A DNA stretch of 64,000 nt from Candidatus Geocrenenecus huangii (lineage in GTDB: Archaea; Thermoproteota; Nitrososphaeria_A; Caldarchaeales; Wolframiiraptoraceae). The notes under the pieces are model-generated. The model had not been told where the DNA came from and did no database searches. It worked only from the letters and a program-made list of their open reading frames with translations. This document shows positions 12,514-40,960 of the stretch, piece after piece. The translations under genes and the position numbers were made by a program. Location: positions 64,001 to 128,000 of the forward strand of contig JALNLM010000001.1 of NCBI GenBank assembly GCA_023254095.1, in the 5' to 3' direction. The stretch's first letter is position 1. The number at the start of each line of letters is the position of its first letter.

Positions 12514-12587
12514 TGGGCCCGGTGGGATTCGAACCCACGACCAACGGGTTATGAGCCCGCTGCTCTACCAGGCTGAGCTACGGGCCC
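12514..12587 (-). tRNA. tRNA with CAT anticodon, most likely tRNA-Ile2 (agmatidine-modified)
   Basis: GGGCCCGTAGCTCAGCCTGGTAGAGCA GCGGG CTCATAA CCCGT ... CGGGCCCA. The GGGCCC acceptor is typical of archaeal Ile(CAU) rather than Met. No intron. Confidence 0.88.
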
Positions 12588-35256: not shown

Positions 35257-36678
35257 ATGCCTACACCGATCGGCATTGTATGTAGTGGTGCAAGTGAATC
35301 CAGTGCTACAGTCGTCCTGTATGATGGAATGGAGAAAGAGGTAAAGAATGAGAGCCTAGTCTTGATTAGGAACAGGAATGGGGGAAATGTTTTAGCAGTA
35401 TGTAGGGGAGGTCTAGGTATAAATGAGAGCCTAAGAACTGGAGCGTTCACGCCGGGTGTAGCATATGCGAAGAGTAGGAGAGTACCGAGTAGTGTAAAAG
35501 AATATTTCCTATTCAAGCTACAGGTTATTGGAGAAATAAACGATAATGGGATCTCCCAGAATAAGATTATTATTGCTCCAACATCTACCGTTGAATTATT
35601 CACAGATGAAGACAGCCCTATGCAATATCTTAGCAAAAGCGATCTATACATAGGACACTACTGGGGGAAGCCGAGCTGGAGGGTTCCAGTCTTGAAAGAA
35701 TACATAAACTATCACATAGGAGTATTCGGTATAACAGGTTCAGGCAAAAGCTATCTAACAAGATACGAGATAATTCCTCTACTCCGGAGAGCTGGATATG
35801 ACGTGATAGTCATGGACTGGAAAGGGAGCGACTACGCTACATACTTTGAGTATGTCTTAGCTCTCAACGAGATAAAGGTAGATAACCAGACTGTTGTAAA
35901 ATACTTTAGCAGTATAACTAGAAACTTCGGATACATCGATAGAGAAGAAAACCCTGTGGCCGCAGCAGTTGAAACGTCTTTAAGGCAAGTCGATTGGAGA
36001 GGCAGAAACCCTGAACAAAGCCGTCAACTAGTTCTACAAAGAGCCAAAGCAATCTTAAACGAGTCATCTGGTGTAAAAGAGGAAACTAGGAAGCTCCAAG
36101 TGAGTAGGCTTGAATCGTCTTTCGAAATAATAACCGAGGAAGAATTCGAGAAATTTTTAGGAACAATAGAGCCTTGGGAGATCTTTGCAAAAGCGAAAGA
36201 CAAAGGGATACTCGTTATAGATATGAGTAGGGGGATCAAAGAGCAGAAGCTTGCAGTCTTTCTTGCTATAACGAAGTATTTGAAGCGATTAATGGAGAAT
36301 AAACAAGTCTTGAATATCGCCATAGTTATAGATGAGGGACCACAGTATGCTCCATGGCAACCTAGAGGTATGGAAAGGGATACAACGGACATGATCATGG
36401 AGCTATGTGCTCTAGGTAGAAGTTATGGTCTATCCATAGTAATTTTATCTCAAGGAATGGCTGGAGAGATAGGGTTGAATGCAGCTGTAAGAAGAAATCT
36501 GAATACACAGTTTATTGGGAGGATACATCCATTAGACGTAGAAGAAGCTCAGAAGCTTGCAGCATCATACTATATCTCTCCGGAGACCATGTTGACTCTC
36601 CCCGAAGGACATTTCTACTTCTTGGGTAGAATGAATCCATCTCCAATACCTTTATTGATAAGCTTCCAGATAAGGTAG
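35257..36678 (+). CDS. HerA/FtsK-family ATPase (HAS barrel + DUF87)
   Basis: HIGVFGITGSGKS, IVIDEG, GRSYGL..LSQ. Confidence 0.88.
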   Translation: MPTPIGIVCSGASESSATVVLYDGMEKEVKNESLVLIRNRNGGNVLAVCRGGLGINESLRTGAFTPGVAYAKSRRVPSSVKEYFLFKLQVIGEINDNGISQNKIIIAPTSTVELFTDEDSPMQYLSKSDLYIGHYWGKPSWRVPVLKEYINYHIGVFGITGSGKSYLTRYEIIPLLRRAGYDVIVMDWKGSDYATYFEYVLALNEIKVDNQTVVKYFSSITRNFGYIDREENPVAAAVETSLRQVDWRGRNPEQSRQLVLQRAKAILNESSGVKEETRKLQVSRLESSFEIITEEEFEKFLGTIEPWEIFAKAKDKGILVIDMSRGIKEQKLAVFLAITKYLKRLMENKQVLNIAIVIDEGPQYAPWQPRGMERDTTDMIMELCALGRSYGLSIVILSQGMAGEIGLNAAVRRNLNTQFIGRIHPLDVEEAQKLAASYYISPETMLTLPEGHFYFLGRMNPSPIPLLISFQIR

Positions 36679-36751
36679 AACGATTAGAAGAATAATTTCT
36701 AAGAACTTTAATAAGTACGTCTACCTTTCTTAGTATCAGTGAAGTATAGAT

Positions 36752-38038
36752 ATGTTCGAAGAAGAAAAGCCTTCTGCGATGAGTAAGCTTCCCTTCAAAC
36801 TACAAGTTGACCTATACGAGCATGCCAGACAAGCTGCTAGCAGGGTTTTCAAGGAGATCGAAATTGAGAGGGAGAAACTTTCTAGAGTCAACAACTTATT
36901 AAAGTTTAGAGATATACCTGAAGTTTTAAGTAGTAAGGATCTAAGGGTCGGAGCCGTAGATGGGTCTTCATCACCTACGTTCAGCGATAGATTAGGCTAC
37001 AGAATAGGGGTTTATGCAGCATGCTACATTGTCTTTGATGGAAACGAGATAATATCTGACAAGGATGATGAAACGATGGAGGCAGGATACATGATGGTTA
37101 ACCAGGTGGGCGATATAGAGCAGACTAGAAAGATACTTACACTCTTGATGACTGTTAAGGAAAGGGAGAAAGCTCTAAGATGTATTGAAAAATATGATGT
37201 TGACATACTTCTTATCGACGGCTCATTCTACGGTTTCAGGACAAGATGTAGTGAGATAAAGAAGTTAGACTTAGCGGAAATAGGGATAAGCGAGTATAAG
37301 ACTGGGTGGGAATTGATAAATCATGTCTTAAAATCCACTAGGAAGCTCGTCAAGTCAGGTAAAGCCGTAGGTGTAATAAAAAGACTTAGATCATGTGCGA
37401 TAGACGGATGGATCTTATCCAAAACATGGAGTAAAAAATCCATCGTAAATCGTAACGATAGATCTGTACTCCGATCTCTCATGCCCTGTGGGAAATACTT
37501 TGACTATAGAGACATCCATGAAGATGAATGGACCTATCTACACTACAGTAACTTAGTAACATGGTATAAGGAATTAGTCAGGAATCATATAATCAGAGAA
37601 GATTGTACACCAGAAGACAATGTAAAACGTGCTTTCGAGTATGTTCACAGTAAGCTCAAAACTCAGATCGCTACAGATCTCACTCCCCCAAATTCCCACA
37701 ATGAACCGAAGAGCAAGGTAGGCGAAGACCTTGTCAAAGAAATAACTAGTAGACCTAGAATACATGCTAGGCTATCAAGATATGCAGCACCGATCTGCCT
37801 AGAACTAGGTGAGGGGGTAGACCTCGACATAGTATTATCATATAGTTTGAAGAATGTAAACGTAGTGACTGGAATACCTTTCCCGATAGACCTAGTTGAT
37901 GAACAGGTTTCCCTGGAAAAAGAGATAGCGAGAGAGTTCGCGGAAGAGATAGAGACAAGACTGCTACTAGAATCAGAGATATCCTCTGAAGAAGTAGAAG
38001 CTAGACTTGAACCTTTAAATCCCCAGAAAGGAGGATAA
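36752..38038 (+). CDS. NurA-family nuclease
   Basis: VGAVDGS, LLIDGSF, VGVIKR, G.PFPI motifs; directly after the HerA-like gene. Confidence 0.82.
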   Translation: MFEEEKPSAMSKLPFKLQVDLYEHARQAASRVFKEIEIEREKLSRVNNLLKFRDIPEVLSSKDLRVGAVDGSSSPTFSDRLGYRIGVYAACYIVFDGNEIISDKDDETMEAGYMMVNQVGDIEQTRKILTLLMTVKEREKALRCIEKYDVDILLIDGSFYGFRTRCSEIKKLDLAEIGISEYKTGWELINHVLKSTRKLVKSGKAVGVIKRLRSCAIDGWILSKTWSKKSIVNRNDRSVLRSLMPCGKYFDYRDIHEDEWTYLHYSNLVTWYKELVRNHIIREDCTPEDNVKRAFEYVHSKLKTQIATDLTPPNSHNEPKSKVGEDLVKEITSRPRIHARLSRYAAPICLELGEGVDLDIVLSYSLKNVNVVTGIPFPIDLVDEQVSLEKEIAREFAEEIETRLLLESEISSEEVEARLEPLNPQKGG

Positions 38039-38090
38039 ACATAGATTAAATATTTGCTCTCTACGTAAGTAGAGATAGGGGTGATGCGCT

Positions 38091-39770
38091 CTCGGAAAAT
38101 ATCTAATTACAGCAGCTCTTCCATATTCTTACGCTCCTAGACACTTTGGACATTTAGCTGGGGCGTACCTACCAGCCGACATATTTGCAAGATTCCGTAG
38201 ACTCGTGGGAGATCAGACCGTATTCGTATGTGGTACAGATGAGAACGCAAGCAGCATCGTATTGGAAGCTATTAAACAGAATATGACGCCTAAAGAATTA
38301 TGTGACAAATACTATCCAATACAGAAAGAAGTTTTCGAAAGGCTTGGAATAAGCTTCGACATTTTTTCACGTACTAGTAAGCCTATACATTATGAAGTGG
38401 TTAGAGAATTTTACAAGAAGCTCTGGGACAAAGGGTATATCTATCCCAAAGAGATTAAACAATGGTGGTGCCCTAAAGATAGAATGGTTTTACCCGATAG
38501 ATTTGTGAAGGGAACATGTCCGAGATGCGGCGCAGAAGACCAGTATGGAGATGTATGCGAAGTATGCGGTTCATGGTATGAGTCTTTTGAGCTACTAAAT
38601 CCGAAATGTACATTATGTGGAGGCAAGCCCGAGATAATAGGTAAGACGCACTTCTTCCTAAAGCTCAGCGAATTAACATCTAGGGTACTAGAATATGTTC
38701 GAGATAAGAAACACTGGAGGAAGGCAACATATAATAAGACGATCTCATGGTTAGAGAAAGAAGGATTAAGAGACAAAGATATTACAAGAGATTATGAATG
38801 GGGTCCTCCAGCTCCTTTCCCTAATGCGGAAAACCAGGTTATATACAATTGGGCTGAAAATCTTCTCGGATACGTATCTGCTACAAGGGATTGGGCTGAA
38901 AACGTCTCAAACCGTCCGGATGCATGGAAAGAGTTCTGGATGGATAAAGAGACGAGACTATACTGCTTCATCGGTAAGGATAACCTCTTCTTCCACACTA
39001 TTCTATTCCCAGCTCTACTGATAGCCCATGGAGAATACATTCTACCATACCACGTAGTAGTAAACGAGTTTGTAAACCTAGAAGGTGAGAAACTCTCAAC
39101 AAGCAGAGGATGGGTCATATGGTTACATGACCTACTAGCTGAATATGATCCAGACATTATACGATACTACGCAGCCGCAATCGCTCCTGAAACAAGAGAT
39201 ACAGATTTCAAGTGGCAGGACTTCGCAGAAAAAGTAAATGGAGAATTGATAGGAACCTTAGGCAACTTTATACATCGTGTATTAACATTCCTGCATGAGA
39301 AGATGGGTGGAGTCGTTCCAGACCCGGGAGAACTCGATGAAAGAAGTAAAGAGATGATCAATACATGTTATAGAATAGTTGAAAAATTCAGGAATCATGT
39401 TGAGGCATGCGAATTCAAGGATGGTTTGAAGGAGATACTCCATCTTGCACAGCAAGGAAATAGGTACTTTAATGAAAAATCTCCTTGGAAGAATCTCGAT
39501 GAGGCTCCTAGAACACTATACGTGTTGATACAGATTGTTCACGCTCTGGCTTTAATAATGTCTCCGTACCTTCCATTTACGTCTCAAAGATTACTAGAAT
39601 ACCTTAACATAGACAAGAAAGTTGAAGAACTTAGATGGGGCGATGTCGAGAAGACGATTCCACCGGGCCACAAGATAAGGGAACCAAAACCATTGTTCAA
39701 GAAGGTTGATGAAAAAGATATACGTGAAAAAACAAAAAAGTTGGAAGAAATAAGGAAGAGCTTCAGCTGA
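38091..39770 (+). CDS. metG: Methionine-tRNA ligase (no canonical in-frame start; see findings)
   Basis: In-frame upstream extension (L)GKYLITAALPYSYAPRHFGHLAGAYLPADIFARF (HIGH motif); CGTDE, Zn knuckle, GKDN, KLSTS. Confidence 0.95.
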   Translation, partial: LGKYLITAALPYSYAPRHFGHLAGAYLPADIFARFRRLVGDQTVFVCGTDENASSIVLEAIKQNMTPKELCDKYYPIQKEVFERLGISFDIFSRTSKPIHYEVVREFYKKLWDKGYIYPKEIKQWWCPKDRMVLPDRFVKGTCPRCGAEDQYGDVCEVCGSWYESFELLNPKCTLCGGKPEIIGKTHFFLKLSELTSRVLEYVRDKKHWRKATYNKTISWLEKEGLRDKDITRDYEWGPPAPFPNAENQVIYNWAENLLGYVSATRDWAENVSNRPDAWKEFWMDKETRLYCFIGKDNLFFHTILFPALLIAHGEYILPYHVVVNEFVNLEGEKLSTSRGWVIWLHDLLAEYDPDIIRYYAAAIAPETRDTDFKWQDFAEKVNGELIGTLGNFIHRVLTFLHEKMGGVVPDPGELDERSKEMINTCYRIVEKFRNHVEACEFKDGLKEILHLAQQGNRYFNEKSPWKNLDEAPRTLYVLIQIVHALALIMSPYLPFTSQRLLEYLNIDKKVEELRWGDVEKTIPPGHKIREPKPLFKKVDEKDIREKTKKLEEIRKSFS

Positions 39771-40821: not shown

Positions 40822-40960
40822 TTATGTTTGCCTCCGACTGTATAAAATCTCTTACAGCCATTCTGATTGCTTCAGCTCTATTCGGGTAGATTTTTCTTCT
40901 AACCAACTCGTCTATTGCTTCTAAATACGCTTCAGGAAGATGAACTGTAACTACTTTCAT
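40814..40960 (-). CDS. cdrS: Ribbon-helix-helix regulator, CdrS-like (48 aa)
   Basis: Not in the ORF track. MKVVTVHLPEAYLEAIDELVRRKIYPNRAEAIRMAVRDFI with a GGAGGTGA SD; stop overlaps the ftsZ start. Confidence 0.85.
   Translation of the reverse strand: MKVVTVHLPEAYLEAIDELVRRKIYPNRAEAIRMAVRDFIQSEANISE

Follow-up and report, generated by a model that had tools for sequence, protein, structure and literature searches.

The 64,000-nucleotide stretch analysed here, positions 64,001 to 128,000 of contig JALNLM010000001.1 from the archaeon Candidatus Geocrenenecus huangii (order Caldarchaeales), is called the window below, and positions are counted from its first letter unless another contig is named. 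It carries, on the plus strand, metG, the gene for a class I methionyl-tRNA synthetase (MetRS), whose reading frame has no canonical start codon ahead of an essential catalytic motif. We propose, with a probability of about 0.72, that metG is translated from the leucine codon CTC at 38091-38093, the corresponding CUC being set in the ribosomal P site by a Shine-Dalgarno motif; the coding sequence would then occupy 38091-39770, that is, 559 codons plus TGA. Judging from the relatives compared below, an essential gene has most likely conserved a start codon outside the near-cognate set. That a start with two mismatches is kept on such a gene across an order and in two types of MetRS would be unexpected.

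The reading frame of metG

The metG frame is shut by a TGA at 38082-38084 and then reads TGC GCT CTC GGA AAA TAT CTA ATT ACA GCA GCT CTT CCA TAT; its first canonical codon is GTG 38205-38207, the start taken by automatic gene callers. This GTG lies downstream of the sequence encoding HFGH (38142-38153), and the 521-residue product that begins there (P0001) lacks the HIGH motif. Both signature motifs of class I MetRS are found in the metG product, HFGH and, located in the translation at 39090-39104, KLSTS, which we take to be its HIGH and KMSKS-type motifs, respectively. The best solved match is the MetRS of Pyrococcus abyssi (1rqg_A, E 2e-57, query residues 5-163), which places the product in the MetRS family, and the families PF09334 (tRNA-synt_1g), PF08264 and PF19303 are recorded for the shortened product P0001 of the window.

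Much of this layout had been described in the original prediction, which named the closing TGA and the codon series after it, the position of the first canonical start on the 3' side of the HIGH motif, a TATA-like TTAAATA at 38046, a Shine-Dalgarno motif GGGGTGA at 38078-38084 with CTC six nucleotides further on, and an out-of-frame ATG at 38084 opening an 18-codon frame that ends in TAG; all of these proved correct on re-check. It had also allowed for a second intact metG elsewhere in the genome. There is none: the genome (1.61 Mb in 32 contigs, 96% complete) has one metG, and the two other hits, both weak (E 8.8e-6 and 5.3e-4), fall in open frames of 1060 and 975 residues.

Conservation of the start position

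A search of 76 genomes of the order gave 67 with a match at E<=1e-60, from which 66 metG 5' ends were collected; widening the search to the class returned the same 76 genomes and added nothing. The homologous codon in these 66 sequences is CTA in 33, CTC in 31, TTA in one and GTG in one, counts that include one sequence (L024) corrected by eye. The original prediction had left it to an alignment of related 5' ends whether this codon is ATG or TTG in all relatives or a conserved non-canonical codon, and it is the latter, a leucine codon, in 65 of the 66. The same 65 sequences share the layout as a whole, a recurrence far beyond chance. By a scripted count, the codon stands exactly 7 nt after GGTG in 52 of the 66, and in 46 no in-frame ATG, GTG or TTG occurs between the upstream stop and the conserved codon. 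In L059, the sole exception in the order, exactly this codon is a canonical GTG (GGGGGG CCGGAA GTG GGC AAA TGG), followed by the same Gly-Lys-Trp. From elsewhere in the phylum 40 outgroups were fetched, which yielded 39 5' ends with a hit; the codons found at the start position there include ATG (L110, L100, L115), GTG (L098, L104-L106), TTG (L103, L111, L114) and CTG (L084, L108), while L101, L109 and L113 have CTA or CTC behind GGTG-N7 and L092 has TTC.

The coding signature of metG and its conservation at the protein level begin at CTC 38091. In the 11 type-A sequences, each column from +1 onwards holds one to three amino acids written in several synonymous codons, and Gly/Ala, Lys/Arg and Tyr at +1 to +3 are written in 4, 5 and 2 codons. 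Few amino acids and many synonymous codons characterise positions +1 to +12 in general, with two looser columns among the type-B sequences, where +1 has six amino acids. On the 5' side of the codon, position -2 is a stop in 3 of the 11 type-A sequences, and position -1 takes 8 different amino acids in the 31 type-B sequences. Relatives of the same genus retain LGKYL(I/V)TAALPYSYAPRHFGH despite many third-position changes, and the 38 codons 5' of GTG 38205 are under strong purifying selection. The solved structure agrees with this boundary: residue 3 of 1rqg_A aligns with the lysine two codons after CTC, and its Met1 therefore falls on the CTC codon.

The order contains two types of MetRS, about 40% identical (YLITAALPYSYAPRHFGH and KWVVCGAWPYINxxPHxG), which are distributed across its families without following them; the second type is found in G024 (genus g2) and the first in genera g11, g13 and g15. 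Two families outside the order (f12, f17) have a MetRS that shares 59-64% identity with the first type, a hint of gene transfer or of ancient paralogy. The unusual layout with a leucine codon at the start is present in both.

Ribosome-binding motif, spacing and promoter

The 3' end of the 16S ribosomal RNA (rRNA) of this genome reads ...GGATCACCTCCT, and GGGGTGAT at 38078-38085 (GGGGTGA being 38078-38084) is complementary to it over eight contiguous pairs; it is therefore a strong Shine-Dalgarno motif. CTC follows 7 nt after its GGTG and 6 nt after its GGTGA. Over 1450 long open reading frames (ORFs) of the genome, with the start crudely assigned to the first canonical codon of each, the commonest spacing from GGTG to the start is N7, with 56 cases, the rarer ones being N5 (24), N8 (21), N10 (21), N6 (16) and N4 (5). 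A 7-nt spacing had also been pointed out for cdrS in the window, correctly, as its ATG at 40958-40960 on the minus strand follows GGAGGTGA and 7 nt. Neither the anti-Shine-Dalgarno sequence nor the initiator tRNA departs from the norm, the latter (contig C13 54551-54626, outside the window) having A1:U72, three G:C pairs and the anticodon CAU; an elongator-type tRNA with anticodon CAT (G1:C72) lies in the window at 12514-12587 on the minus strand. In P. abyssi, the toeprint of 30S:aIF1 on an mRNA bearing a Shine-Dalgarno motif is independent of the presence of AUG (PMC6237735), which fits positioning by the ribosome-binding motif alone.

Within GGGGTGAT lie an out-of-frame GTG (38081) and the A and T of an out-of-frame ATG (38084), both displaced by one base from the metG frame. 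The ATG opens a mini-ORF of 18 codons on the plus strand, MRSRKISNYSSSSIFLRS, at 38084-38140, with TAG at 38138-38140. We judge this mini-ORF to be a by-product of the ribosome-binding motif rather than a gene: in seven relatives (L028, L032, L048, L049, L055, L062, L065) its frame stops after 2-6 codons or is wholly different.

Further upstream stands a TATA-like box, ATTAAATA (38045-38052, plus strand, with TTAAATA at 38046-38052), which is the putative metG promoter and, from its place at -46, would predict a leader of about 12-16 nt. When at least six of eight matches to TTTAAATA are required, 46 relatives have such an 8-mer, and in 32 of them it stands 40-47 nt 5' of the start-position codon. 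Histograms of the TATA-to-start distance in this genome are too sparse to separate leaderless from leadered geometry.

Restriction to CTC and CTA

The choice of leucine codon at the start is narrow. In the 40 codons that follow it in these 66 genes, internal leucine is written CTT 71 times, CTC 64, CTA 62, CTG 43, TTA 32 and TTG 18, counts that come from related sequences and do not represent independent events, while CTT, CTG and TTG are absent from the start position in all 66. CTC and CTA occur side by side within genera g1 and g14. Because CTG and TTG would be stronger starts and yet are absent, the avoidance of the stronger codons that lie a single step away (CTG, TTG, ATG, GTG) suggests selection for a weak or special start. 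Such avoided changes also point to selection for limited or regulated synthesis of MetRS. As for CTT, followed by G it would presumably form an out-of-frame TTG.

Proposed mechanism and points against it

In the mechanism that we envisage, GGGGUGAU would pair with the 3' end of the 16S rRNA and so position CUC in the P site. The GUG and AUG, each off the metG frame by one base, would be mere letters of the motif and too near to it for use. Initiator Met-tRNA would be accepted on CUC at low efficiency, and the weak start may serve to regulate or limit MetRS. Translational autoregulation, which the original prediction had put forward, is a speculation, though the long avoidance of stronger start codons would suit it in so far as it fits selection for a weak or special start. 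The protein would begin (Met or Leu)-Gly-Lys-Tyr-Leu-Ile-Thr, with the same N-terminal length as the P. abyssi enzyme, and the N-terminal peptides expected from a CTC start are (M)GKYLITAALPYSYAPR or LGKYLITAALPYSYAPR. Most sequences have a small second residue, Gly or Ala, so that the initiator methionine would be removed.

Several points weigh against initiation at CTC. Both CUC and CUA mismatch the initiator anticodon CAU at two of three positions. Codons that are not near-cognate initiate in Escherichia coli at about 0.01-0.2% of AUG (10.1101/063800), and reports on archaeal aIF1 describe it as discriminating against start codons outside the canonical set (PMC6237735, PMC8211752). An in-frame GTG, ATG or TTG is present a few codons upstream in 20 of the 66 relatives, namely in genera g2, g5 and g15 and in sporadic cases, and in these the start position may differ from the leucine codon. 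The spacing counts carry the crude start assignment already mentioned. Finally, with the putative promoter the mRNA would begin right at the ribosome-binding motif, and initiation of the leaderless type near GUG/AUG may then be geometrically possible.

Some relatives have a changed motif. In genera g2 and g5 (L011-L013, L015, L018-L020, L027, L033-L037) it is duplicated or shifted (GGTGGTG, GGGTGNGTG), which puts a GTG in frame two to three codons 5' of the conserved leucine codon; that codon is still CTC or CTA.

Alternative explanations

We consider it unlikely that translation starts instead at a neighbouring in-frame codon, be it GCT 38088, GGA 38094 or a near-cognate codon further in such as ATT 38106. 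Proteins sourced from NCBI (P0002, P0003, P0025-P0028) do begin MITAALPY, MLITAALPY or MTAALPY, inside the first beta strand, but starts of this kind lie about 20 nt from the ribosome-binding motif, and ATT is 22 nt from GGTG. Moreover, synonymous changes have left Gly/Ala, Lys/Arg and Tyr/Trp in place at +1 to +3; these residues are therefore translated, which excludes ATT 38106 and the codons further in. For the codons immediately beside CTC, the alternative can draw on the 21 genomic cases of GGTG-N10 and on the mostly small residue at position -1 in type-A sequences (Ala 7, Gly 3, Ser 1 of 11); against it stand the eight amino acids that type-B sequences accept at -1, the rarity of GGTG-N4 and the canonical starts of L059 and the outgroups, which coincide with the leucine codon and do not lie beside it.

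A second alternative keeps the start at CUC but has it read by a leucine tRNA, carrying either leucine or methionine misattached by MetRS, so that synthesis of MetRS would be tied to the activity of the enzyme or to how much initiator tRNA is supplied. The retention of a leucine codon in 65 of 66 sequences through several CTC/CTA changes, with other NUN codons not seen, would suit it. So would two biochemical reports: MetRS of Aeropyrum pernix charges tRNALeu (the UAG, CAG and GAG isoacceptors) with methionine at 75 C, to about 1.5% of the methionine signal (PMC4705672), and P. abyssi aIF2 binds elongator Met-tRNA with a Kd of 450 nM versus 90 nM for an initiator mimic, a five-fold difference (PMC6237735). 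This reading, however, leaves the absence of CTT, CTG and TTG unexplained, the outgroup L092 has TTC at the position, single-step descent from TTG or CTG suffices for the bias towards leucine codons, and aIF1 disfavours elongator tRNA in the P site (PMC6237735). We hold it to be distinctly improbable. Only slightly more credit, and still little, is due to the broader proposition that in Caldarchaeales, and patchily elsewhere in Thermoproteota, the MetRS mRNA is initiated without normal codon-anticodon pairing at a leucine codon that a strong ribosome-binding motif holds in the P site, possibly via tRNALeu bearing leucine or misattached methionine, such that MetRS synthesis senses MetRS activity or the supply of Met-tRNAi. 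If it were true, a mechanism of leucine-codon initiation would have as its signature that CTC and CTA are strictly used while CTG, TTG and CTT are avoided.

Very improbable in our view is a programmed +1 frameshift, in which translation would start at the out-of-frame GUG 38081 or AUG 38084 and slip forward by one base within the first codons (giving MRSRKYL) or at the start codon itself. Nearly every sequence that has no in-frame start does carry GTG at -10 or ATG at -7, displaced from the frame by one base, and the two without GTG (L008, L009) both have ATG; the TATA-like box, too, lies 36-39 nt 5' of GTG/ATG, a distance that genes lacking a ribosome-binding motif also show. Both triplets, however, are part of GGTGAT(G), which is complementary to the 16S 3' end, and stops restrict where a shift could occur. 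The metG frame is stopped at -6..-4 in L006, L009, L017, L022, L025, L038 and L041, whereas the -1 frame is stopped at -4..-2 in L048, L049, L055, L062 and L065 and just after the leucine codon, at or before the A4 slip site, in L028 and L032. A shift is therefore possible only at codon -7..-5, which is not conserved (ATG, GTG, ATA, AGG, AGA, TGG, TTA, TCA, CTT, AAA, ATC, AGT, GTC, AGC and others). The A4 run itself occurs in only three of eight sequences of the genus (L001, L004, L007), and L059 and outgroups have canonical in-frame starts at the leucine position. Of the two routes that the original prediction had offered, initiation at CTC thus gains from the motif spacing, the relatives and the point at which the coding signature sets in, while a +1 slip at CGG-AAA-A loses through the patchy A4 run, the stops and the finding that no A is extra.

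Three further candidates were rejected. A +1 shift of the hungry-AUG kind, with GUG in the P site and AUG in the A site, fails in L009 and L017, where the next codon of the 0 frame is a stop, and in L008 and L009, which have no GUG. Reading of the TGA as a sense codon is opposed by TAG stops a short way 5' of it (38070, 38076 region). Coupling of translation to the preceding gene, whose end is at 38038, does not fit L008-L010, where the upstream neighbour differs and the layout persists.

The weakest explanation, a sequencing or assembly error in the form of an extra A in the AAAA run, which the original prediction had wished to exclude, or a decaying pseudogene, has in its favour that the window comes from a 32-contig, probably metagenome-derived assembly and that the proposed slip site is a homopolymer, but it is refuted for practical purposes, since contigs from three runs of three studies (X11, X12, X13) span 38010-38246 with no gaps and no indel (those of X11 and X12 mismatch the window at two other bases), the same frame layout recurs throughout the order, the 96% complete genome holds metG as a single copy, and the 38 codons before GTG 38205 are under the purifying selection noted above.

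Surroundings of metG and other unusual starts

Two genes lie directly 5' of metG at 35257-38038 on the plus strand, and from their sequences the products, of 473 and 428 residues, look like a putative HerA-type ATPase and a putative NurA-type nuclease. An Rfam scan of 37000-39000 with E up to 1 gave no match, and folding of 38074-38160 (-11.8 kcal/mol, z +1.38) revealed no leader structure, although a small hairpin between the ribosome-binding motif and the start region is seen in the fold.

The gene rpoA' of the same genome provides an internal control. It has GGTGA-N6-ACG, where five relatives of the genus have ATG (4) or GTG (1), and all 29 of the 29 relatives examined have a canonical start at that codon or within three codons of it; ACG here has the look of a near-cognate start peculiar to the species, and again the gene is essential. 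The gene (Rpb1 domains 1-2) lies outside the window at contig C2 60113-60128 (L117 about 214-229), with the ACG behind GGAGGTGA-N6, and an out-of-frame ATG-TAG at its start is the end of the upstream gene.

Two more genes of the genome have leucine codons in a comparable place. In a homoserine dehydrogenase gene (PF00742, PF03447; contig C1 100304-101320, minus strand, L118:55-1071), CTG stands 7 nt after GGAGGTG, and the Rossmann N-terminus (LRILLAGFGIVG) is encoded 38 codons before the first canonical start, which lies 65 codons from the upstream stop. A nitrite/sulfite-reductase-like gene (contig C1 110045-111520, minus strand, L119:46-1521) has CTC 6 nt after GGTGA and, as its first canonical codon, TTG 12 codons later; it may start at either of the two.

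Significance and comparison with known systems

One consequence concerns annotation. Two of the three most similar genus clusters (P0001, P0004; 520-521 residues) lack the HIGH motif, as do further family-level clusters of 516-525 residues, and the annotated starts of MetRS, whether they omit HIGH or fall within the first beta strand, are probably wrong for this universal marker gene. A second concerns initiation itself: if metG starts at CTC, either proofreading of the start codon can be overridden in these archaea by a strong ribosome-binding motif, or the protein is begun by a different tRNA. In terms of regulation, the putatively weak start of metG offers a concrete system for study.

Known non-AUG starts are near-cognate. 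The metG start does not belong to that class, as CTC, CTA and TTA are each two positions away from ATG, and CTG occurs in the outgroups L084 and L108 only. Literature searches, which did not cover supplements, found no description of a CUC/CUA or other non-canonical start in Aigarchaeota or in archaeal metG, and a review of archaeal initiation lists AUG, GUG and UUG only as start codons (PMC7531240).

Among bacterial systems, infC, the gene of IF3 with its AUU start, resembles metG in that it belongs to the translation apparatus, has retained through long evolution a non-AUG start with a ribosome-binding site ahead of it, and has this start missed by gene callers. As in that class, metG has a conserved non-canonical codon where relatives have a canonical start, with the ribosome-binding site at normal spacing. 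The AUU of infC is near-cognate, with one mismatch, and IF3 itself discriminates against AUU, which creates feedback; CUC and CUA in metG have two mismatches, and MetRS is a synthetase and not a fidelity factor, so that the analogy is a loose one. The frameshift gene prfB, which encodes RF2, likewise has an element resembling a Shine-Dalgarno motif just 5' of a two-frame junction in a translation gene. There, the motif lies 3 nt upstream of a conserved slippery CUU-UGA site; metG does not share this, the stops in both frames leave no workable shift site, and the conserved shift-prone site with both frames open up to it that marks the prfB and antizyme class is not found.

Initiation at CUG with a leucine tRNA is said to have been described in eukaryotes by Starck et al. 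in 2012. It resembles the case of metG in using a leucine codon as a start, but it involves CUG and eukaryotic factors, and CTG is conspicuously absent from the start position of metG in the order. As regards the protein, the closest solved structure, MetRS of P. abyssi (PDB 1RQG), has in common with it a zinc-knuckle insertion (CPxCG...CEVCG) and differs in length, with 722 residues compared with 559 here. The work on non-cognate initiation in E. coli is comparable in that codons besides AUG, GUG and UUG can initiate behind a strong ribosome-binding site (10.1101/063800). That work used artificial reporters, which reached 0.01-3% of AUG (10.1101/063800), whereas metG would present a natural and conserved start on an essential gene, in an archaeon with initiation factors of the eukaryote type.

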